Shown here in pieces: positions 1-16,680 of a DNA stretch of 64,000 nucleotides. The notes beneath the pieces were generated by a model. That model ran no database searches, was not told where the DNA came from, and saw only the letters and a list, made by a program, of their open reading frames with translations. The position numbers were made by a program, and so were the translations under genes. This stretch comes from Candidatus Margulisiibacteriota bacterium (GTDB lineage: Bacteria > Margulisbacteria > Marinamargulisbacteria > JBFWNS01). Position 1 is the first letter of the stretch; each line of letters begins with the position of its first letter. The stretch spans positions 320,001 through 384,000 of the forward strand of contig JBFWNS010000001.1 of NCBI GenBank assembly GCA_050250935.1, read 5' to 3'.

Positions 1-129
1 CCCAATTCAACCTTGTCTAGCTTGGTGAATGCCCTTAACGAAATTGGGGCTTCACCCAAAGACCTTATCTCGATTTTGCAAGCACTCAAAGAATCTGGTT
101 CCCTTATCGGAGACCTTGAGGTCCTCTGA
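1..129 (+). CDS. flgI: Flagellar P-ring protein FlgI, C-terminal fragment (5' truncated by window)
   Basis: Frame 1 reads [42 protein letters not shown], matching the FlgI C-terminal signature (LV.ALN.lGatP.DLi.ILQAlk.aGaL.a.le.i); stop overlaps next ATG (TGATG). Confidence 0.9.
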
Positions 130-527
130 TGCAGCAGTGGATTTTCTGGGCCTTTCTTTTGTCTTTACTTCCCTCGGTTCTTATCGCACAAGATTTCTCT
201 AGCATGATGCCCATGGATCCCATGGCGATTCAACACCAGAAGTTGAGCCGAAAAGAAAAAAAAGACATCCTGGTTACCTTCGAAGCCCAGATTATCAAAG
301 AAATGTTTTTAAAACAGTGTATGATCCAAAATATCAGCTTCTTGGACGAAGAAGAAAAGGCCGAAGATGCCGCATTGTTGCAGCAATTCGATATGCAAAA
401 CGACTACTTCACCGATGCCATGGCCTTAAAACTGGCCAAGCAGGATATTTTTAAGCTCAAAGCCTACTTTAAACGCCGAGGAATCAACCCTGAACAAGCA
501 CAAAAACAATCAACAGCAAGAAATTAA
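129..527 (+). CDS. flgJ: FlgJ-like rod-binding (rod cap) protein, no muramidase domain, with predicted signal peptide
   Basis: Follows flgI; FEAQIIKEMFLK resembles the FlgJ rod-binding motif FE..f...mlK; N-terminus [22 protein letters not shown] looks like a Sec signal. Confidence 0.65.
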   Translation: MQQWIFWAFLLSLLPSVLIAQDFSSMMPMDPMAIQHQKLSRKEKKDILVTFEAQIIKEMFLKQCMIQNISFLDEEEKAEDAALLQQFDMQNDYFTDAMALKLAKQDIFKLKAYFKRRGINPEQAQKQSTARN

Positions 528-588: not shown

Positions 589-1266
589 GTGGCAGAGCAC
601 ATGTCCATAGTCGAGGCCATTGCCTCCAACATTGCTGGCAGTGGGCGAATTCCCCCTTGCATTGGATTTGACGACTTGGTCAGCTGGGGCATCGAAGGGC
701 TGATCAAGGCCCACCGCAACTACAAGTCGGACAAAGGGTCTCAGTTCAAAACCTATGCGTTTTACCGCATTCGGGGCGAGATTTTGGACCGAATTCGAAG
801 CGAATGGCAATACCGAAACCCCCACGAGTACACCGATTACCGCAAAAAACTTCAGGATCGTATTGCCGAAATTGCCGAAGAAGCCTTGGAAGATCCTGCT
901 CTGGCCGAAAATTCGGCAGCAGCCTACGAGGAAGCGGTTCAAAGCATTGTGGCCAACTCGGCCATTTCTTGCCTGATTTCTTCCGATTCCATCGATATCG
1001 AATCCCATATGGCCGGCACCCGAAACCCTGAAACCGAGTTTTTCGAGGAAGAAGAAGCCTCTTACCGGTTGTTATGGAGCGAAATTAATACCCTAGATGC
1101 CGAAGAAAAAGAATTGGTGGAATTGTTTTATGTTAAAGGGCTCAAACAAAAAGAAATTGCAGCCAAGCTTAATTTTTCCAACAGCAAGGTGTGCCGTTTG
1201 CACATGAAGATTTTGGACAAACTGCGTCGCCGCATGTCCAAAAAAATGACGGAGCCCCAAGCATGA
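589..1266 (+). CDS. fliA: FliA/WhiG-family (sigma-28) RNA polymerase sigma factor
   Basis: DDLVSWGIEGLIKA...FKTYAFYRIRGEILDRIR (region 2) and LKQKEIAAKLNFSNSKVCRLH (region 4); true start may be upstream (CTG at 490). Confidence 0.9.
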   Translation: MAEHMSIVEAIASNIAGSGRIPPCIGFDDLVSWGIEGLIKAHRNYKSDKGSQFKTYAFYRIRGEILDRIRSEWQYRNPHEYTDYRKKLQDRIAEIAEEALEDPALAENSAAAYEEAVQSIVANSAISCLISSDSIDIESHMAGTRNPETEFFEEEEASYRLLWSEINTLDAEEKELVELFYVKGLKQKEIAAKLNFSNSKVCRLHMKILDKLRRRMSKKMTEPQA

Positions 1267-1640
1267 AAGTCGTTTTGATGGGCTTATTAATGGCCTTGTT
1301 ATGTCTCGAACCCCTTCAAGCCAAAGCCATCGACCGTGTTTTGTTTGACGATGTTCACGACCATTTGGCAACGGCCATTAATGGCGCAGCCGAAAAACAA
1401 AGCATGTTTTCGTACAACATCGCCAACGCTTCGACCCCTGGGTTTCGACCCGTTTTGAGCCCCGAAGACAGTCTCGAATTTCGAAACCTTGTTCCCGCCA
1501 ATCACCAAGATTCGGACATTATGATTGAATATTTTATGGCCAAATTAACCGAAAACAGGTCTCATCAAAGTGCCTACATTAAACTGTTTACAACAAAAAT
1601 GGGTATTTTGCGCCAGGTTGCGACCTTGGGTAAACGCTAA
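1263..1640 (+). CDS. flgB: FlgB-like proximal rod protein with N-terminal signal peptide
   Basis: NIANASTPGFRP motif and C-terminal helix EYFMAKLTENRSHQSAYIKLFTTKMGILRQV; ATG overlaps the fliA stop (ATGA). Confidence 0.8.
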   Translation: MKVVLMGLLMALLCLEPLQAKAIDRVLFDDVHDHLATAINGAAEKQSMFSYNIANASTPGFRPVLSPEDSLEFRNLVPANHQDSDIMIEYFMAKLTENRSHQSAYIKLFTTKMGILRQVATLGKR

Positions 1641-2083
1641 TGAAAAAGGCCGTCGTTCTTTTTTTACTGCTGACACTTGCTTCTCCACTTCTAGCCCAGG
1701 GCTTGGATGATGCGTTTAAAATCAGCATGTCTGGCATTGCGGTTCAAAAATTTCGCCTGCGCCTGATTGCGGAAAATATCGCCAACGTCGCGACGTTGAA
1801 AACCGAAACCGGCCTGCCCTATCAGAAACAGTATGCTGTTTTGCAGCAGCATAAATTTGGGGTTCGGGTTTTGCGGGTTGAAAAAAGCAACGAACCCTTC
1901 CCCATGTACCCCGACGGCGCGGTGATTCAAGCCGACGACGGAGGTTTTGTCCATTGGCCCAACGTTAACCTTCCCGACGAGTACGTGGATTTGGCCTTTA
2001 CAGAAGCCATGTTCGAAGCCAACGTTACGGCTTATAAATCGGCCAAGGCTATGTATCAACAAACCTTGGAAATCTTGAAATAA
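1640..2083 (+). CDS. flgC: FlgC-like proximal rod protein with N-terminal signal peptide
   Basis: ISMSGIAVQKFRLRLIAENIANVAT...PY and ADDGGFVHWPNVN...FEANVTAYKSAKAMYQQTLEI are FlgC signatures; TAATG coupling to flgB. Confidence 0.9.
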   Translation: MKKAVVLFLLLTLASPLLAQGLDDAFKISMSGIAVQKFRLRLIAENIANVATLKTETGLPYQKQYAVLQQHKFGVRVLRVEKSNEPFPMYPDGAVIQADDGGFVHWPNVNLPDEYVDLAFTEAMFEANVTAYKSAKAMYQQTLEILK

Positions 2084-2096
2084 AGGAGGCTCTTTT

Positions 2097-2738
2097 ATGA
2101 TTGGAAACGTTTCAACAGCTGCAGCATCCGCTTCTTCTGGCCCAGCCATACCAAAACCCTCGCTGGCCGATCTGGATGGCCCTTCTTTTCAAGAAGTTTT
2201 GGACGAAAAAACAGCCAAACAACCCGACCATTCCAACACACAAAATCCGATTCAACACCTGACAAAAGCCGTAGCCGGACCTTCTGCAATTGCCCAATCC
2301 AATTTGGTTGCCCAGGCATTATCCGACGAAATTACCAAGCCTCAACGCAAGTTTCAGGCCGCCAAAAAAGACATCAACGACAACACCCTTTTGGCCCAAG
2401 CCCCAGACAACAACTACGAAAACTGGCAGGCTCAACTTTTTGACAACGCCCCAGCTGCCGTTACCCCTAAAAACGTCGTTAATGAAGCCCAAAAAAGTAA
2501 TAAATTGGATGTGACGCCCTTCCAATTGTTCATGGACAAAGCGGTTGATGCCCTCGAAAATATCAGCCAGATGGAATTTAAGGTAAACGACTTGATCGAC
2601 GGCTATATTCAGGGTAAGGTTTCTATTGATGAAGTGACCATCGCCGCTTCAAAATTAAGCCTCGCTGTTTCCTTTATTACAACTGCCGTCACCACGGCCA
2701 CCCAAACCTTAAAAGAACTTCAACAAATGCAAATTTAA
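2097..2738 (+). CDS. fliE: FliE-like hook-basal body protein with long N-terminal extension
   Basis: Position between flgC and fliF; C-terminal ~75 aa (VSIDEVTIAASKLSLAV...LKELQQMQI) match FliE; SD AAGGAGG upstream. Confidence 0.75.
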   Translation: MIGNVSTAAASASSGPAIPKPSLADLDGPSFQEVLDEKTAKQPDHSNTQNPIQHLTKAVAGPSAIAQSNLVAQALSDEITKPQRKFQAAKKDINDNTLLAQAPDNNYENWQAQLFDNAPAAVTPKNVVNEAQKSNKLDVTPFQLFMDKAVDALENISQMEFKVNDLIDGYIQGKVSIDEVTIAASKLSLAVSFITTAVTTATQTLKELQQMQI

Positions 2739-2762: not shown

Positions 2763-4385
2763 ATGGCCGAAATGGACTTTGACAACGAAAACGATCTTGA
2801 TATTGGCGAACCCCCAAAACCTGCTTCTGGGTTCTCGTTTCGTCGTATTTTTACAACCTTGGCCGTTGTCGCAGGTGTGGTTGCTTTGGGGGCCACGGTT
2901 TACAATTATGTGATTAAAGACGACAGCATTAGCGCCATCAAAGCCAAGGCCCCAGCCACTGCTGAAGCCCCTGAAAAAAAGGAAAAATCTGGTGGTTTTT
3001 TCAGCTCTTCAGATAAAAAGAAAAAAGTAAAATATACCGTTTTATACACACAGTTGTCTCCCGACATCACCACCAGTGCTTTGCGGGAACTCAGCTTTTC
3101 AGACATTCCTTTCGAAACCAAACAAAACGGGAAAAACTTCGATTTGTTAATCGATGAAGACCGCATTGACGAAGCCAAAAACCTGCTGGCCCTCAAGGGA
3201 ATTCCGGGTGGTGAAATTAAAGGCTATCAATTGTTGGACGATTCCCAAACCCTTGGGGTAACGGAATTCGACAAACGGGTTCGGTTTGTAAGGGCCCTTT
3301 CTGGGGAATTGGAAAAAGCCATTACCAAGCTCGATATGGTTGAAGATGCCAAGGTTCAAATTGTATTGCCCGAACAGCGTTTGTTTGCCGTTACCCAACC
3401 CCCCGTCACGGCCTCGGTTTTGATTCGCAAAACCCAGGATGGGGTTCTAACCGACGATGTGGTGTTTAGCATCATTCAAATGGTGGCCAACTCTGTGGAA
3501 AACCTTCAACAAGAAAACATTACGGTTGTGGACACCGAAGGACACGTGTTGTCCGAGGGTATCTTCGAACGCATGGCAGCCAGACGAGCTGGACGCATTG
3601 TACCCAAGCGCCCAACAGCAGCTGTCGAAGAAGCCGTTTCCCCCACCGAAAATGTGGCTCCATCGGCCAATACAGGCCCAACTTTTGCCTCGATTTCCGA
3701 TCTGAATAAATGGTATGCACTTAAAGAACAGTACGAAAAAGACCTGGCCAAGCGGGCCATGCGCCAGTTGGTGGGCATTTTACCGATGGGCAGCTACAAA
3801 GTGGTGATTGCTGCTGATATTTCGCCTGTTATTAAAGACGGCCAAATCGAAGTCCGCCGTCTGACCACCAGCATTGTCGTAGACAGTAGCCGAAACGACA
3901 TTTATTTGGATATTTTAACCAAAAAACAAATCTTCAATACCATTGCAGGTGCCATTGGCTATGTGAAGGGCCGGGACACGATTCAGCTGAACAAGGCCGA
4001 CTTTAGCCTTCTTTCGGCTGCGGAACGCCAACAGATTATGGACGTTTTCATCGACAAAAATTGGAAATATTATTTAAAACTCTATGGCAAATACTGGCCG
4101 TTTGTGGCCGTTCCTGTTGGGGTGTTTGTGGTATACAGCCTTCTGGCAAGCTTGGTGCGCCGGATTCGAGAACGCTTTAAACGCAATGCCGAGGAACTCG
4201 AGGATGATGACGATAACGAAGACCCCGAAGAAGGGGAACCTGACTTTGCCGAACTTCATCAAGAAGTGAATCCTGCCAGGTACACCGAACAAATTAAAAC
4301 CACAGCTGAAAGCAACCCCCAAGTCATCGCCCAATTAATGGAAGAATGGCTTGAAAACGACCAAGAAGAAGAGGTGCCTGCCTAA
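2763..4385 (+). CDS. fliF: FliF-like MS-ring protein (beta-collar absent)
   Basis: TM1, RBM1, GYQLLD..LGVTEF..RALSGEL, RBM2 ending ITVVDTEGHVLS, RBM3, TM2, and C-terminal NPQVIAQLMEEWL FliG-binding motif. Confidence 0.92.
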   Translation: MAEMDFDNENDLDIGEPPKPASGFSFRRIFTTLAVVAGVVALGATVYNYVIKDDSISAIKAKAPATAEAPEKKEKSGGFFSSSDKKKKVKYTVLYTQLSPDITTSALRELSFSDIPFETKQNGKNFDLLIDEDRIDEAKNLLALKGIPGGEIKGYQLLDDSQTLGVTEFDKRVRFVRALSGELEKAITKLDMVEDAKVQIVLPEQRLFAVTQPPVTASVLIRKTQDGVLTDDVVFSIIQMVANSVENLQQENITVVDTEGHVLSEGIFERMAARRAGRIVPKRPTAAVEEAVSPTENVAPSANTGPTFASISDLNKWYALKEQYEKDLAKRAMRQLVGILPMGSYKVVIAADISPVIKDGQIEVRRLTTSIVVDSSRNDIYLDILTKKQIFNTIAGAIGYVKGRDTIQLNKADFSLLSAAERQQIMDVFIDKNWKYYLKLYGKYWPFVAVPVGVFVVYSLLASLVRRIRERFKRNAEELEDDDDNEDPEEGEPDFAELHQEVNPARYTEQIKTTAESNPQVIAQLMEEWLENDQEEEVPA

Positions 4386-5032
4386 TGTTGACTGGAAAAC
4401 AAAAAGCCCAAATTCTGTTGTCCCTTTTGGGTTCAAAAGCCCAAGACGTTCTAAGCTTATTGTCCCCCGAAAAAGCCCAACTGTTGACCACCATTATTGA
4501 GGACGCCCCAGAACCCAGTGCCAAAGAATTAAGCGCTTTGTCCGACGAAATTACCCAACGGGTTGGTGGAAACAAAAAGCCCATGCTTACGGGCGACTTG
4601 TCCAGCTCGTCATCTTCTCTTTTTTCTGGAGAAAGTTCGTTTGGGGCCTTTGATGCCGCACCCGAAGCCGAAGAACCAGAATCCCCTGTGGAATCCGGTC
4701 CCAAATTGCGCCCACTACCCGAAGTGGCTGCCCTGCTTTCCAAAGAAAAACCCCAGTTGATTGCCTTTATTTTGGGCAAAGTTGAAGAGCCCATCAAAGA
4801 GGAATTGCTCTCGTATTTACCCGACTATGTGTTGGCCGAAGTGCAAGCTCGCTCTGTGGATTCTTTCCCGCTTTCAGATGCGGTGTTTAAACAATTGTAC
4901 GACGCTATTTTTTATGCCCCAGAGATCCCCGAAGGCGAAGAGGCGCCAGCCGCAGAATCCAGTTCTACGGACTCGCCTTTTGCGTCCTCCTCGTCTTCGT
5001 CTATGTTTGATAGCGCACCGCTATTTAGCTAG
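4385..5032 (+). CDS. fliG: Truncated FliG-like protein (N and middle domains only)
   Basis: MLTGKQKAQILLSLLG (FliG-N), EKPQLIAFIL (EHPQ-like middle domain); ends at 215 aa in a Ser/acidic tail; TAATG coupling to fliF. Confidence 0.85.
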   Translation: MLTGKQKAQILLSLLGSKAQDVLSLLSPEKAQLLTTIIEDAPEPSAKELSALSDEITQRVGGNKKPMLTGDLSSSSSSLFSGESSFGAFDAAPEAEEPESPVESGPKLRPLPEVAALLSKEKPQLIAFILGKVEEPIKEELLSYLPDYVLAEVQARSVDSFPLSDAVFKQLYDAIFYAPEIPEGEEAPAAESSSTDSPFASSSSSSMFDSAPLFS

Positions 5033-9734: not shown

Positions 9735-12700
9735 ATGAAGTCAAAAGCAAAACAAACCCTCTCTTTTCTTGCCAAATATTCCACTTGGCTTATTTTGTCG
9801 CTGCTCTTTGCAACCCTAACTTTTGGGGCGTTTGTGTATCAAACTCAGATTCCCCAAGAAACCATTCGAAAATTGGTTCAAAAAGAGCTTAGTCGACAAT
9901 TCAAACGCGAAGTCACCATCGACCGTGTGTCTGGCAATTTGCTGTTCTCGGCAACATTAAAGGGCATTCGTTTTGCAGACAAAGACCGGGTCAAAAACGG
10001 TGTGGGTCTCGAAATTGGTGAATTAACGGCTCACTATAATTTGATTTCGGCGGTTCAACACAACGGCGATTTTGCAGCGGCCTCTTCGAAAGTAATGGTC
10101 AAAAATGTGATTTTGTTTGTCCACAGACAAGCCAATGACGACTGGAACGTGTTTCATTTTTTCCCTCCTCCAGAACCCCACATGCCACCGGGCGTCCCCA
10201 CTTTTACAGGGATTTTATTTGTGAACAATCTGGCCTTTAAATTTCAAGACGACAAAGGTTGGGGGGAAACCCAGCTTCAGAAACCCTTTACCGAAACCTT
10301 TGGCCGGTTCAAAGGGAGTTTTAATTTTTCTCATTTAAAACGGGTTCAACTTTCTTTAACCGGCGAAACGGCCAGCAACGAAGCCCCCATGACCCTTCAA
10401 GGGGTCTTTAATGCCTTTAATGGGCAATACGATTTAATGTTTAGCTTAACGCCAAAACTCGACCGATGGGCACCTTACGTGTTGCCCTATTCTGGGTTTT
10501 CGATTACCCAAGAAAGTCCGTTTATTGTGGGCCATGTTAAATCCAAAGAATTGGCAGATCCCGCCGAAATTCCATTTTGGTACGATTTGACGGTTCATTT
10601 GGACAACAACACCCTTAAACTCGCCGCAGTCCCCTTACCCATTACCCAACTTAAAGCCGATGTTCATTTGTATAACAACCAATTGGATCCCTTGGATTTG
10701 AATGCCGTGGTTTCCGCCGAGGAGGCAACGTCGCTGATCTCTCGGTTAAAGGCCTTAAGGGTTTTAAACCAAGATGGCCGGCTGCTGCGCTACAAACTGG
10801 CCGAATTAAAAGACCTTCCGCTTTGGAAAAGCCTTCTGTCTTCTGAACAACAAAAAGCCATTGTTCACCGTCTGGTTTTCAGTAAAGGTCATATTGATAT
10901 CCAATCGGCATCGGGAAAAGTGGATGCCATTCCGCTTCAGGCCCAGGGGAGTTTATATGCCGAAAGCCAATCCATTAGTCTGAATATTAAGGCCAAGGCC
11001 TTTGATCTGGAGGCCCTTAAGCGGGTTTTCCCGGCTTTGAATCGCTATACCTTTTCGGGCCGAGGGGAAAGCCAATTTCGCTTGAACGGCCGTTTGGATG
11101 ACCCCAAAATCAGTGGCGCGTTGGATCTGTATACAGCCGAGATTTATACAGTGAGTGTTCCGTCTGCCAAGGTTCATTTCGAGTTTGGGTCCTCCCTATT
11201 TCAATTCAAAACAGACCCCGTTGCCTGTCTTTCGGGGCAAGCAAAAATTGAAGGGCGCTTTTATACAACTGGGGCCAATAACATGAGTCTGACGGCCACT
11301 GGGCAACACCTGTCTGTTGCTGATCTTGGGCTGCGCCAGATTCCCATTTCTGGGTTTGCCGATGTGAACCTGACCCTGACCCAGGGCCAAGAAGGGTACA
11401 CGGTTGCCTTCAAAACCACCTTACCCGATGTCCGGCTTTATCAACAAAATCTGCAACACCTGTCTGGAACGCTTCTGCTGAGACCCGATGATAGTCTGAT
11501 TATTTCTGGACTGGATCTGGGCCTAAACGACACCGGGGTTTTGCACCTGTCTGGCTCGCTTCAACCCAACAACGCTTTTACCCTTCAGTTTCAGGGTCAG
11601 GGCATCCCCCTTAAGGATGTAGATCCCACACACGAGCACAACAAATCAGGGCTGCTAACCCTTAAGGGGCAACTTTCTGGGGTTTTAAATCAGGCCTTCT
11701 GGGCGAATCCCTGGGAAAACCTTCAGGGAAGTGTTCAATCCAACCTGACGGATTACCGGTTCTTTGAACAACCCATCGATACCCTGGATTTGGATCTGTC
11801 TTTTGCCAACCACAGCATCGTTGTCCGAGAGTTTAGGGCCAAACACGGTCCAGAACTTTTGGCCATTACCGGAGACTTCGAAGGTCTAGAACCCAGGTCC
11901 ATTTCGGTGGTGGTTCAATCGTTGAATTTGAATCGATCCAAATGGATTCAACGGCAGCTGCCAGACGTGATCAAACCCTTTGGTGGCGACATCAGTGCCA
12001 AACTGTCCATTACCAAAAAATCCAGGCCCGGAACCGCTGTAGCCAATTGGCATTGGATGGGGCGCTATGCCATTCAAGGTCAGGCCTCTTTAACCCATAC
12101 CCTGTTCCAAAGCCAACCGCTTTCAACCCTGAACGCCACCTTGAACTGGGATGGCAATGCCTTGACCCTTTCGGATGCGATGCTTAAACACGGGAAATCC
12201 ACCATTTTGTTGGCTGGCCGAATCCAAGCTGATCAACGTTTGGATTTAACCCTTCGCCCTGGCTCTGTGGTTGTGTTGGATGATTTTCCAGTGCTGACCT
12301 CGAGTTTTGGGTATTTTTCTGGGCAAGTGGCCGTAGACGGTCGTCTCTCTGGCACCTGGCGCGATCCTGATGTTGAACTTAATATTGTTGGAAAACAGCT
12401 TCACACCAATCACATTGTCCTTGACGAGGCCGTGGGCAAAATTGTGTACAACCGCCACAAATTGTCTTCGCCACAGTTCACCCTTAAGCGAGGGGATAAC
12501 GACTATGGATTTAGCGGTTATATCGACCTGAGTCCCCTTCTGTTTGGCCGTAACTTGGGCCCTCAAGCTTGGGACTACAAATTGTCTGTTGGGGTCAACA
12601 AAGCCGATTTGGGAATCTTGTCCGAACTGATCGAATCGATTTACAAAGAGGTTAAAAGCCACCGAGAAGCCCCAGCCATAGCCACCGAGGCCATTCCCAA

Positions 12701-14969
12701 TGCCAACACCACCCCGGCTACTGGAATGGTCATCACCTCGCCGTTGCAAAAAGATCCCTTAACGCCATTGTACAGCTTGGTGAATACGGGAGCCGTTTCG
12801 GCTTACTATCAGGCTTTGGCCAACAAAAAAACGTCCGAAGACAACCCCGAAGAATTGGGACTCAAAAACCTGATCCGTGGCAGCCTAAGCGGGACTTTTG
12901 TGATGGAGTCTCATCAACAACTCACCCCCACTTTGACGGCCGACCTGTCCTTAACCGACGCCTCGATTTCATTTTTATCGGCTCAAAAACTCGAGCTCAC
13001 CATTCACAGCGATGGGTCGGGCACCCAATGGACCTTGGGGATGGACAACGGCCGTATTGGGGCCAAAGATTTCCAGAATTTTTCGGGCAATGGCACCTTT
13101 GATCAGAACGGGGTTCTGTTTATTCAAAAAGGCAGCATCACGGCCGACCAACGGCCAAACCCCCGGTTTCTTCAGGGTCGAATCCCCTTGGCCGGACTTT
13201 GGGACAAAACCAGAGCCGAGGATCTGATGTCGGTTGAAGTGGTCTTAGAGGGGAATAACATCAGTGTTTTGACCTTGTTTAACGACACCGTTAAAGACAT
13301 TACCAACGACGGACGTGTGGTGTTGGATATTGGGGGGAGTTTGGCCAAACCCCTGATTAGCGCCCGGGAAATCACCCTAAAAAATGCCGCCATCACCTTT
13401 AGCGAGGATACCTATATGCGATCGCCATTGCGCATCGCTCAGGCCTCTTTAACCCTGGTGAACAACCACCTGATGATTCCAGCCACCACCATCGAGTGGC
13501 GTGGGATCGATACCAAATTTTTCCTGACTGCCCAAGAACGGCTAAACACCTTTGTGGTTTCTGGGGCCGTGGATTTTAACGATTTAACCTTAATTGATCC
13601 CGAACAACTTCGAATTGGCCTGGACTTGGCGCTTCAAGATACGTTTATTACCTTGAACTTTCCAAAGGTGTATAACGGCGATGTGAAATTGTCGAACATT
13701 CGGGTTAAAGGCATTTATACCGTCGGCATTTCAGACACGGCCAAGCTGGCTTTGCGCAAACAGCTGCAAACCGAAAGGGAATCGGGACCTGTGATCTCTG
13801 GCTATATTGAGCTTAGTACCGGCGAAGTCATTTTGCCTTCTGTGGGCAGCAAGACCCTGAAACCGCCCTTTATGTTGGATTTAACCTGTATGGTTCGAAG
13901 CAGTATTTATGTGGGGGGCAGCTTGTTGGGAGAAGGCTTTTTTGAAGGGGTCGCCAATTCGTTTAATCTGGCCCTTAACGAAACTTCGGATCCCCTTTTG
14001 GTTGGCGGAACCATTAATGCCCCACGAATTCGCAATAAAATCACCTTTAGCGATGGGGGGGTTAATTTGTTTAACCGAGGCTTCGATTTGTTAACCACGG
14101 ACCGCCAACGCCTGTTTTATTCCGAGCAATACCGCATTCATCCCAATACCCTGTCTTTTGTAACCCGTACCGAGAAAAACTCGGAAAAACTGGAACTGAT
14201 TCCGATGTTGGATATTGTGGCGATCTCTGTGATTCCGCCCTATCAAAAATCCAGCACGGTCTCGGACAACACCCAAGTCGGTCCCAAACCTGCCGACACC
14301 TATAAGGCCGTCTTGGTCTCGTTTAATGGGTCGGTGTACAACCTAGACACCATTGCCTTTGAAGAATACAACATGACGGCAGAAGACCCCTTTCAGGGAT
14401 CGCCCAAATACCAAAATACCTATACCATCAGCGGCTCGTCTGGAGCCTCCAAAGACCTGTCTTCTGTGGTTCGACTTTTGTTTCCCAATCTGGTTCAAAG
14501 CAGTACCGATAGCCAAGAGGCCGAAGGGGATCAAAAAACCAAACGCATCATCAACGAAGTGGGCGAAAATCAAATTAACACCCTGGTGCGGCGGCAATTT
14601 TTACGCCCCATAGAAAAACAAATCGCCAAAAATGTGGGACTCTACGACTTGCGGGTCGACTATAATGTTGGGGGCGCCCTGCTTAAACAGGTGTCAAATG
14701 TCTCGGGGTATTCGGGCTTGGGATCAGACCAAAACAACGTGGCCGTGAACATGATTAGCCAGCTGTCTGAACCCTTGTTTTTGCGGGTTCGCACCGACTT
14801 CGATTCTTCGGCCGATAACCGTGTGGCCAAAAATGCCCTTCGTGTTTCAGAGGTTGAATTGACCTATTATTTGCTTCGAAATCTGACCGTGAACTATGCC
14901 AATATTCAGGACCCCGTGGACCTTACCATTCGACCCAAGGTTTCGGTAAAATACAGCTATGAATTTTAA
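9735..14969 (+). CDS. tamB: TamB/AsmA-like translocation-assembly protein (1744 aa)
   Basis: N-terminal membrane anchor, long amphipathic beta-rich repeats (G.l..P.i.G motifs), C-terminal YSYEF; overlaps the downstream Omp85 gene. Confidence 0.8.
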   Translation: MKSKAKQTLSFLAKYSTWLILSLLFATLTFGAFVYQTQIPQETIRKLVQKELSRQFKREVTIDRVSGNLLFSATLKGIRFADKDRVKNGVGLEIGELTAHYNLISAVQHNGDFAAASSKVMVKNVILFVHRQANDDWNVFHFFPPPEPHMPPGVPTFTGILFVNNLAFKFQDDKGWGETQLQKPFTETFGRFKGSFNFSHLKRVQLSLTGETASNEAPMTLQGVFNAFNGQYDLMFSLTPKLDRWAPYVLPYSGFSITQESPFIVGHVKSKELADPAEIPFWYDLTVHLDNNTLKLAAVPLPITQLKADVHLYNNQLDPLDLNAVVSAEEATSLISRLKALRVLNQDGRLLRYKLAELKDLPLWKSLLSSEQQKAIVHRLVFSKGHIDIQSASGKVDAIPLQAQGSLYAESQSISLNIKAKAFDLEALKRVFPALNRYTFSGRGESQFRLNGRLDDPKISGALDLYTAEIYTVSVPSAKVHFEFGSSLFQFKTDPVACLSGQAKIEGRFYTTGANNMSLTATGQHLSVADLGLRQIPISGFADVNLTLTQGQEGYTVAFKTTLPDVRLYQQNLQHLSGTLLLRPDDSLIISGLDLGLNDTGVLHLSGSLQPNNAFTLQFQGQGIPLKDVDPTHEHNKSGLLTLKGQLSGVLNQAFWANPWENLQGSVQSNLTDYRFFEQPIDTLDLDLSFANHSIVVREFRAKHGPELLAITGDFEGLEPRSISVVVQSLNLNRSKWIQRQLPDVIKPFGGDISAKLSITKKSRPGTAVANWHWMGRYAIQGQASLTHTLFQSQPLSTLNATLNWDGNALTLSDAMLKHGKSTILLAGRIQADQRLDLTLRPGSVVVLDDFPVLTSSFGYFSGQVAVDGRLSGTWRDPDVELNIVGKQLHTNHIVLDEAVGKIVYNRHKLSSPQFTLKRGDNDYGFSGYIDLSPLLFGRNLGPQAWDYKLSVGVNKADLGILSELIESIYKEVKSHREAPAIATEAIPNANTTPATGMVITSPLQKDPLTPLYSLVNTGAVSAYYQALANKKTSEDNPEELGLKNLIRGSLSGTFVMESHQQLTPTLTADLSLTDASISFLSAQKLELTIHSDGSGTQWTLGMDNGRIGAKDFQNFSGNGTFDQNGVLFIQKGSITADQRPNPRFLQGRIPLAGLWDKTRAEDLMSVEVVLEGNNISVLTLFNDTVKDITNDGRVVLDIGGSLAKPLISAREITLKNAAITFSEDTYMRSPLRIAQASLTLVNNHLMIPATTIEWRGIDTKFFLTAQERLNTFVVSGAVDFNDLTLIDPEQLRIGLDLALQDTFITLNFPKVYNGDVKLSNIRVKGIYTVGISDTAKLALRKQLQTERESGPVISGYIELSTGEVILPSVGSKTLKPPFMLDLTCMVRSSIYVGGSLLGEGFFEGVANSFNLALNETSDPLLVGGTINAPRIRNKITFSDGGVNLFNRGFDLLTTDRQRLFYSEQYRIHPNTLSFVTRTEKNSEKLELIPMLDIVAISVIPPYQKSSTVSDNTQVGPKPADTYKAVLVSFNGSVYNLDTIAFEEYNMTAEDPFQGSPKYQNTYTISGSSGASKDLSSVVRLLFPNLVQSSTDSQEAEGDQKTKRIINEVGENQINTLVRRQFLRPIEKQIAKNVGLYDLRVDYNVGGALLKQVSNVSGYSGLGSDQNNVAVNMISQLSEPLFLRVRTDFDSSADNRVAKNALRVSEVELTYYLLRNLTVNYANIQDPVDLTIRPKVSVKYSYEF

Positions 14970-16680
14970 ACACCGCTTCTTTTTTATGCTTGGTTTTGTT
15001 CTTTGGGTCATGGTCATCGACCCTGTGGCTGTCCTGGCCCAAACCGATTTTAATCACCCCGTATTTGCCATTCGACTGCCTGGGCTTACCGCTGTTTCAG
15101 AAAATGCCCTTATCCCCTCTTTAAGCACCAAAGTAGGCCGAAAAACCAATGCCTTTAACCTAAAACGGGATATTGAAACCTTGTTTTTAACAGGATTATT
15201 TCGCCAAGTTGAAGCCAACCCTGTGGTGTCTAACAATGTTCTGACCCTCGATTTTGTGGTGAATGAAAACCCTACCGTATCGGCCATTGTGTTTGAGGGA
15301 AACACGGTTTTTTCAAGTGAGACTTTACGGCCGCTGATCCAAAACCGTCCCGGCATGGTTTTGAATATTCGCTCGATTGAAACCGATAAGACGGCTCTGG
15401 AAACCTGGTACCGTGACCACGGCTACGACCTGTTTGTTGTGGTAGATATCAGTTTGGATGCCGATCGGGTGTTGCATTATCATCTGCAAGAAGGCCGTAT
15501 TGGAAAAATTTTGTTTGTGGGCATCGATCAAGTCCGGGCCTTTGTGTTGGATCGGGAATTGGTCACCCAACCCGATACTGTATTTAATTCCAAAACCTTG
15601 CGGGAAGACCGAGACCGCTTGCTGCGTTTGGGCTATTTTTCGGATGTTTCCCCGCCCATTTTGCAAGAAAGTTTGGATAAAACCAAACCCAATATTGTGT
15701 TTAAAGTCCAAGAAAAAAAGCTCAATTTGATGGATTTTGGGATAGAACAAGAGCGGGACATCGTGGTTGCCTTTGCAAAATTGGACCTTCAACAACGCCT
15801 GATTCCCAGCGATTTTACCCGGCTTAAAGTTCAGTCCGACTATCAATATGGCCGTGTCGGCATTCGAAGCTATTCCTTAAGTTATCTGCAACCTTGGTTT
15901 TTGAATTGGATCCCCGTTAGCTTTGCCACCGATGCTTGGAACGAACTTAAACAAGAATATTTGGTTGATAAATCCACCAATACACGAAGCTTGAAGGACA
16001 ACAAACGCACGGGCTACGACGTGATCTTGGGTGTACCCCTGATTCGAGACCGCATGACCCTGAGCTCCAAGTTCAAAAGTGAGTCTGTTTCTATTATTCA
16101 AAGCGATGGCTCCTATGCCCCCTACTACGATATTCGAACCTTGGGCTTGGCCTTAAGCTATCGTCAATTGGACGACAAAAACAACCCTAAATCGGGACTT
16201 GCTTGGAGCCTCGAAGGCGAAAAAGGCGGCTACATTGCTGGGCTCAATTTGGGGGGACTCACCTTTACCCGGACCAGTGCCGAAACCATTTTGTTTTTGA
16301 AACAGTCCGATGTGGATACCTTGGGATTTCATTTGGCCGGGGGCATGATTTTTGGAGCTTCCTCGATCAGCACTTTCGAAACCGATAGTTTCGAGCTGGG
16401 GGGTGCCGCATCGTTACGGGGCTATAAAGAAACCAATCCCTTTACAGGTAGCCGAAAGATTTTGGCCAATATCGAATACCGCCACGATTTTAACCCCGTT
16501 ATTCAAGGGGTTCTGTTTTATGATGTGGGGCAGGCCTTTTCGACAGGGGCTGTTCCGTATCCCCTACACCAAGGCTATGGGTTTGGCACCCGGTTTTTTA
16601 CCCCCATTGGCGCCTTAAGATTCGATCTGGCTTGGGGTGAGGCCTTTATGATCCATTTTGGATTGGGCCAAGTTTTCTAG
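14959..16680 (+). CDS. Omp85 family (BamA/TamA-like) outer membrane protein
   Basis: Signal peptide, about three POTRA domains (FEGNTVFS, LLRLGYFSDV), LGGAASLRGY loop-6 motif, TPIGALRFD, terminal FGLGQVF. Confidence 0.92.
   Translation: MNFKHRFFFMLGFVLWVMVIDPVAVLAQTDFNHPVFAIRLPGLTAVSENALIPSLSTKVGRKTNAFNLKRDIETLFLTGLFRQVEANPVVSNNVLTLDFVVNENPTVSAIVFEGNTVFSSETLRPLIQNRPGMVLNIRSIETDKTALETWYRDHGYDLFVVVDISLDADRVLHYHLQEGRIGKILFVGIDQVRAFVLDRELVTQPDTVFNSKTLREDRDRLLRLGYFSDVSPPILQESLDKTKPNIVFKVQEKKLNLMDFGIEQERDIVVAFAKLDLQQRLIPSDFTRLKVQSDYQYGRVGIRSYSLSYLQPWFLNWIPVSFATDAWNELKQEYLVDKSTNTRSLKDNKRTGYDVILGVPLIRDRMTLSSKFKSESVSIIQSDGSYAPYYDIRTLGLALSYRQLDDKNNPKSGLAWSLEGEKGGYIAGLNLGGLTFTRTSAETILFLKQSDVDTLGFHLAGGMIFGASSISTFETDSFELGGAASLRGYKETNPFTGSRKILANIEYRHDFNPVIQGVLFYDVGQAFSTGAVPYPLHQGYGFGTRFFTPIGALRFDLAWGEAFMIHFGLGQVF

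Follow-up and report, generated by a model that had tools for sequence, protein, structure and literature searches.

A Short FliG, Probably a Static Adaptor, in the Second, Flagellum-Derived Type III Export System of Margulisbacteria

Results

The Operon in the Window

The window analyzed here is a stretch of 64,000 nucleotides (C1:320001-384000) from the 1.95 Mb genome of a Candidatus Margulisiibacteriota bacterium, an assembly that is 95.85% complete. It opens with an operon of flagellar type:

129..527, + strand: small protein with a signal-like N-terminus, between a flgI-like gene and fliA, in a conserved position
589..1266, + strand: FliA/WhiG-family sigma factor (TIGR02479, E 7e-36)
1263..1640, + strand: FlgB-like rod protein with a signal-peptide-like N-terminus (PF00460, TIGR01396)
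1640..2083, + strand: FlgC rod protein with a signal-peptide-like hydrophobic N-terminus (TIGR01395, E 4e-25, from residue 25)
2097..2738, + strand: FliE-like protein with a long N-terminal extension (PF02049 at E 0.0014, below the cut-off; operon position)
2763..4385, + strand: FliF variant of 540 aa (RBM1-2 as PF01514, residues 88-264)
4385..5032, + strand: short FliG of 215 aa (FliG_N, disordered linker, FliG_M and an acidic Ser/Pro tail)

The small protein at 129..527 has no Pfam match and may be FlgJ-like, by position only. The FlgB-like gene probably starts at the ATG that overlaps the fliA stop. According to the open reading frames of the window, the ATG of the short fliG likewise overlaps the stop of fliF. 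In profile comparison, the RBM3 domain of the operon FliF lacks an insert of about 50 residues, read as the beta-collar, which is present in a fusion protein encoded elsewhere in this genome (see below). The longer insert of canonical FliF is visible at the canonical loci L088-L090.

Signal-peptide-like N-termini occur in FlgB and FlgC (window 1263-2083) and in two FlgF-like proteins (L007:15238-16913), and FlgG has none. By a crude hydrophobicity cut, the hydrophobic extension of FlgC is found in 9 of 14 loci of the class, in 7 of the 8 loci that represent the second system in flagellated genomes, and in 2 of the 22 G070-G145 loci where FlgC was detected. Neither of the two rod proteins detected at canonical loci carries it. 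Sec export of the proximal rod would be unusual for flagella. Further downstream, window positions 9735-16680 encode a 1744-aa TamB/AsmA-like protein followed by a BamA/TamA-like one, as judged by sequence look only.

The Short FliG Lacks the Torque-Generating Domain

A preliminary description of this DNA, made from its letters and open reading frames, had recognized in the last gene of the operon a FliG N-terminal and middle domain with EKPQ in place of EHPQ, a low-complexity tail and a stop at 215 aa. Pfam, TIGR00207 and the sequence itself bear out this reading. FliG_M (PF14841) matches residues 114-171 above its cut-off (E 3.3e-7), FliG_N matches residues 2-66 (E 5.8e-5) with 24.1 bits, narrowly missing a cut-off of 25, EKPQ lies at residues 121-124 and a tail rich in S, E and P forms the C-terminal end. 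The reported lack of an MFxF motif and of a torque helix also held: no MFxF-like motif is present in the sequence, the Pfam scan found no FliG_C in the 215-aa protein, and the TIGR00207 match spans model positions 9-166 of 338 only. There is no split remainder before trxB either, as had been noted, since the stop of the short fliG lies 36 nt from the first and 39 nt from the second possible trxB ATG. A remainder reached by frameshift or read-through was rejected, as none of the three frames past the stop gives FliG_C-like sequence.

An AlphaFold model built from an alignment of 55 sequences (mean pLDDT 80) shows three helices in the N domain, then a disordered stretch as linker, and an M domain of armadillo type. 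Its best structural matches are FliG: 3hjl (Z 10.0, rmsd 15.5, 134 residues aligned), the FliG_M structure 3soh (Z 8.5, rmsd 2.7, 70 aligned) and the FliG_N-FliF complex 5wuj (Z 6.6, rmsd 2.7, 66 aligned), with 5tdy also matched. Foldseek returned nothing at E<=0.001, and its top 15 rows were all flagellar motor or FliG entries. Pfam and structure together indicate that the FliG_N domain is present, and its co-folding with the FliF tail is predicted.

The Truncation Is Conserved Across the Phylum

We fetched 60 fliF loci from 57 genomes, out of 132 genomes with a FliF match. Three of the 60 are canonical, with a FliG of 333-338 aa; the other 57 belong to a second apparatus, here system 2. A short FliG (140-374 aa, median 183) lies directly 3′ of fliF in 55 of these 57 loci, the two exceptions being a contig that ends past fliF and a locus without a called ORF. 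Throughout the phylum the genes recur in the order fliA-flgB-flgC-fliE-fliF-short fliG, in most cases with fliH-fliI next, and flagellated genomes with a short FliG also carry a full FliG elsewhere. A single-sequence search with the short FliG retrieved three relatives only. The conservation alignment comprised 54 short FliGs and the window protein, leaving out one of 374 aa with a long acidic tail. Among these 55 proteins Pfam detected FliG_N in 46, FliG_M in 41 and FliG_C in two; because the latter two are only 163 and 171 aa long, their FliG_C matches are read as cross-matches between the related M and C folds. At the FliM-facing E/Q-x-P-Q position, the first residue is E in 41 and Q in 14 of the 55, P is found in 31 and the final Q in 37.

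A low-complexity tail and a FliG_N score just below the Pfam cut-off are what a pseudogene remnant in a decaying flagellar operon might look like. The truncation is not decay, since the same one is found in 55 of 57 loci across the phylum. The frames are intact and translationally coupled, and the FlhA and FliI of system 2 are highly conserved, with short branches. The pseudogene explanation is refuted by this conservation and is scarcely credible.

The Rest of the Apparatus

Upstream (5′) of the window lie fliK-like and flhB-C-like genes, two flgF-like genes, flgG, flgA, flgH and the flgI-like gene, and fliH-fliI-fliJ are also on C1. Contig C5 carries fliM, fliN, fliO, fliP, fliR, flhB, flhA, a second sigma factor and a 287-aa flgE-like gene, so that the genome search for fliM and fliN suggested earlier found both. 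The genome as a whole thus encodes FlhA, FlhB, FliOPR, FliHIJ, FliM, FliN, FliE, the rods, a short FlgE, FlgA and FlgH, which means that the flagellar export gate, ATPase, MS ring, rod and L ring are all present. FlgI and FliQ were assigned by sequence look or position only.

Other flagellar parts were searched for and returned no match in this 95.85%-complete genome, namely flagellin_N (PF00669) and a chemoreceptor (MCP); the sole match to the FlgK model is the N-terminus of FlgG. In the alignment of system-2 FliM, no N-terminal CheY-binding motif was seen. The genome has one secretin (C5:102198-103250), which lies outside any type III cluster, and FlgH is present instead.

Three further features of C5 were observed near these genes. 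A ParA/MinD-family ATPase (C5:120336-121085) is encoded between fliM and fliN, and the second FliA-like sigma factor (C5:127897-128544) lies 3′ of flhA. Just upstream of the fliM-flhA cluster, C5:109480-116430 holds three long low-complexity ORFs of no obvious family, which are possible candidate substrates.

A FliG_C Fusion and MotAB Are Encoded Elsewhere

The notion that this genome has no torque parts is ruled out by two loci unlinked to each other:

C6:12967-14445 (L001:364-1842): FliF-ring/FliG_MC fusion of 492 aa, behind a TPR/SPOR gene
C2:21674-23258 (L004:1162-2746): motA-motB

A separate FliG_C gene together with motAB was the very finding named in the preliminary description as incompatible with its proposal, and a genome scan with the fusion protein as query had found nothing at first. 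The fusion begins with a signal-like N-terminus and continues with a FliF-RBM3-like domain, a single membrane helix and then FliG_M and FliG_C, and its N-terminal part resembles RBM3 of the operon FliF (probability 97.4 in profile comparison). In 18 of 20 fusion loci motA and motB follow 3′ of the fusion, in two of them with a second FliG gene in between; this is not an unbiased rate, because most of the 20 loci were picked knowing that a MotB match lay near. Exceptions to the linkage are this genome (G000), G035 and one G069 locus.

Charges in the FliG torque helix, the Arg/Glu pair and Pro of MotA and the Asp of MotB all have known roles in the flagellar motor. The torque-helix consensus of the fusion is NLxxxAxxMVxQxLELK, compared with NMSERAAENLKEEM in canonical FliG, and lacks the canonical R..EE charges. 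The MotA of the module mostly lacks the rotor-facing Arg/Glu pair (in this genome Arg is replaced by His and Glu is kept), and its Pro is retained. The MotB Asp is kept in 26 of 27 aligned rows, the remaining one being masked. On these residues, the fusion and MotAB look like a working ion motor with an interface of its own. Other orphan motor modules occur in relatives (L031, L032, L035, L036, L040-L044, L046). In these, a ring-like gene and a FliG of ~350-420 aa precede either motAB or two other genes, one short and FliM-like, the other of outer-membrane type; no such module is found in this genome.

Matches in 146 genomes were as follows: FlhA 135, FliF 132, FliI 130, FliM 104, FliG_C 64, MotB 59 and flagellin_N 15. 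These counts are only descriptive, because the genomes are mostly incomplete MAGs and are related to each other. In 13 flagellated genomes (G057-G069) every part is present, with two fliF each, and a full flagellum coexists with the second apparatus. Among the 55 genomes of the class to which the window belongs, FliF was matched in 50, FliG_C in 45, MotB in 42 and flagellin_N in one, and FliG_C plus MotAB are encoded by 42 of the 55. The 76 genomes G070-G145, probably mostly WOR-1, gave FliF 68, FlhA 71, FliG_C 6, MotB 4 and flagellin 1, with no MotB match in the other 72. As many as 62 of these 76 have FliF with neither a FliG_C nor a MotB match, the near-complete, single-contig genomes G085 and G129 among them.

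Because this genome encodes FliG_C and MotAB, with the MotB Asp intact, a rotor could be added in trans. The short FliG would then anchor FliM and FliN, the fusion would give the same basal body an outer torque ring, and MotAB would turn a short hook or needle in those lineages that kept the module. In favor of such a split rotor, each of the 59 genomes with MotB also has FliG_C, a nearly perfect co-occurrence, and the fusion supplies exactly what the operon is missing, the RBM3 insert and FliG_C; the MotB Asp and the retained rods, hook-like FlgE and FlgH fit as well. However, FliF persists without either part in those 62 genomes, and the fusion is unlinked to the short-FliG operon, brings its own signal peptide and FliG_M and sits beside a TPR/SPOR gene. 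FliG_C genes reach 7 copies per genome vs one system-2 operon, and neither the torque helix without R..EE nor a MotA mostly without the matching R/E pair speaks for a conventional interface. We regard the split rotor as unlikely, although it is the strongest competitor of a static ring, and the fusion with MotAB as likely a separate ion-driven machine.

A Needle-Like Protein and Its Cluster

A conserved cluster on C5 may belong to the same apparatus:

C5:133123-139374 (L015:8123-14374): conserved cluster encoding proteins of 87, ~108, 862, 280 and 595 aa
C5:133123-133386: gene of the 87-aa protein, followed by the genes of the ~108-aa, 862-aa and 280-aa proteins

None of the cluster proteins has a family match. 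The top ESM-Atlas feature matches of the 87-aa protein are T3SS_needle_F (0.93, 205/256 features; 22 of 30 matches), in a tool by whose own account shuffled proteins reach 0.9 in 4-10 of 100 cases. Its model is a helical hairpin (pLDDT 67). No needle match reached significance with Pfam, NCBIfam, PDB profiles, Foldseek or VIA; needle structures appeared as weak Foldseek rows only (E 3-4) and not among the 50 VIA rows listed, and PF09392 matched nothing in the five other genomes tried. Homologues of the 87-aa protein occur in 27 of 146 genomes, all of the same class. We therefore treat it as a candidate needle subunit, a lead from one language-model search.

The 280-aa gene is found in 108 of 146 genomes. 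In 19 of 20 fetched loci a gene of ~100-130 aa lies upstream of it, replaced by one of 172 aa in G022; 17 of 20 have a large gene in between, and most have at least one further gene of 69-140 aa. With an E-value below 1e-4, the profile of the needle candidate matches only three small proteins of the 20 loci. No secreted substrate, translocon or gatekeeper emerged when the cluster proteins were scanned with Pfam and the atlas, and the 595-aa protein gave no usable atlas match. The cluster may be tied to the apparatus, by co-distribution and not by linkage.

Were the small proteins ordinary substrates, the machine could be a basal-body-only envelope device of the kind known from Buchnera, that is, a static export pore or scaffold without a filament, in which the short FliG would have the same static role. 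The absence of flagellin and FlgK matches in the genome would agree with this, as would the lack of significant profile or fold matches between the small proteins and needles. Yet the gene order of the cluster is kept in most of the 20 loci, with tandem repeats in some, and genes for a FliK-like ruler and an FlhB-C-like protein have been retained, which makes a device with no filament at all distinctly improbable.

Phylogeny of the Export Proteins

System-2 FlhA groups in a single, tight clade (SH-aLRT 100) and system-2 FliI likewise in one clade (SH-aLRT 99), both separate from the flagellar copies of the same genomes. By these trees, system 2 is an old paralogous system. In every tree it falls outside the clades of SctV and SctN; these trees come from quick searches, have no bootstraps and include no named references from Chlamydiae, Myxococcales or spirochaetes. 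FlhA trees of 34 rows split system 2 plus SctV from flagellar FlhA (SH-aLRT 95 and 99), and in a tree of 99 rows, with 75 added representatives, the clade with all flagellar references excludes system 2 (SH-aLRT 93); a grouping of system 2 with the flagellar FlhA of its own phylum is not rejected (p-AU 0.067). The placement next to SctV finds no confirmation in FliI trees, which set system 2 with Gram-positive-type and own-phylum flagellar FliI at a weak support of 80-87, and topology tests on FliI reject neither origin (p-AU 0.23 for SctN, 0.54 for own flagellar).

Against 50%-identity representatives, system-2 FlhA has one full-length match at 64% and the next at 45%. The nearest representatives from outside Margulisbacteria (P0045, P0028 and P0061) likewise branch apart from the main flagellar clade, and P0045 is sister to system-2 FlhA on a long branch (SH-aLRT 96). 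They may mark related machines in other phyla.

Discussion

We propose, with a probability of roughly 0.65, that the short FliG serves as static adaptor in a second type III export apparatus, one that derives from a flagellum, has no flagellin and is conserved across Margulisbacteria; this apparatus would be non-rotating and needle-bearing. By analogy with solved complexes, its FliG_N would co-fold with the FliF tail and its FliG_M would hold FliM and FliN. Without FliG_C there would be neither a stator track nor ARM-C stacking on the neighboring subunit, so that the ring, or a set of pods, should be static. Ring or pods would position FliM/N, FliH and FliI under the export gate, which is the job of SctK in injectisomes. 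Proteins would then be exported through the rod and L/P-ring channel into a thin filament of the 87-aa needle-like protein. Binding to FliF and FliM, the lack of rotation and export into a thin filament are thus what we infer from comparison with known machines.

The earlier proposal of a static cytoplasmic platform is probably right, but for comparative reasons and not because torque parts are absent, as this genome has both FliG_C and motAB. Main support for a static role is that much of the phylum keeps the apparatus without a detectable stator or torque domain. The retained rods, hook-like gene and L ring count against it, as these are bearing parts in a rotating motor.

System 2 could even be a living intermediate between flagellum and injectisome, with an FlhA next to SctV, a FliG cut down to an SctK-like adaptor, a needle subunit in place of flagellin, and flagellar rods and L/P rings in place of a secretin, while the lost torque half would live on as an independent FliF-ring/FliG_MC/MotAB motor. 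This idea is tentative, and we would give it well under even odds. Whatever its origin, this type III machine is nearly universal in the phylum, and automatic annotation would take it for a broken flagellum. Should it be static and needle-bearing, it would represent either an independent conversion of a flagellum to secretion or an early branch of the injectisomes. Two questions become testable with it: whether SctK arose by truncation of FliG, and which structure spanned the outer membrane before secretins were recruited. It also offers a natural experiment on how much of FliG suffices to build a C ring and support export.

Margulisbacteria are related to Cyanobacteria, and host-associated members are known. 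For 'Ca. Ruthmannia eludens' in Trichoplax H2, PMC6784892 describes thin, fimbriae-like tubes that link the bacterium to the vacuole of its host. Literature searches turned up no description of the present system, and supplementary gene tables may list these genes; by term search, the main text of PMC6349859 contains none of 'flagell', 'secretion' and 'T3SS'.

Comparison with Known Systems

The closest likeness is to the flagellar C ring (FliF-FliG-FliM-FliN), with the same FliG_N and FliG_M folds and, in relatives of this operon, the same gene order fliE-fliF-fliG-fliH-fliI. Export proteins score higher as flagellar than as injectisome proteins (FlhA 760 vs SctV 642 bits, FliI 652 vs SctN 597, FliP 246 vs 189, FliR 182 vs 124), except for the N-terminal part of FlhB, which scores higher for SctU (147 vs 127). 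Unlike flagella, system 2 has a short FliG without MFxF, ARM-C and torque helix, a FliF in which the collar insert is missing, a FlgC often with a signal-like N-terminus, and no match for flagellin, FlgK or MCP. Of a possible stator, motAB is present in this genome, unlinked to the operon of the short FliG. The hook-basal bodies of Buchnera aphidicola also combine a basal body and export gate with no filament or motility. They are, however, the reduced sole flagellum of an endosymbiont, whereas the old, paralogous system 2 stands beside a full flagellum in 13 genomes.

With injectisomes, system 2 shares an adaptor gene of ~200 aa between the ring gene and the FliH/SctL gene and, in FlhA trees, the position next to SctV; the candidate needle subunit may be a further likeness. 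A FliG-like role for SctK has been hypothesized (PMC4045390), and FliG has been structurally linked to SctK families, with a sctJKL gene order (10.1101/2025.03.14.643159). Unlike SctK, the short FliG is still recognizable as FliG by sequence; unlike injectisomes, system 2 keeps FliE, the rods, a hook-like FlgE, FlgA, FlgH and separate FliM and FliN, and has no dedicated secretin, the only one being unlinked. The intermediate type III systems of Myxococcales (PMC3459982) are likewise flagellum-derived, with no linked secretin, and are non-motile, as system 2 probably is. They are described as lacking FlgBCDEK, FliEG, FlgH, MotAB and SctF (Abby and Rocha, 2012; PMC3459982). In contrast, system 2 retains FlgB/C/E, FliE and FlgH together with one half of FliG, and has a needle candidate.
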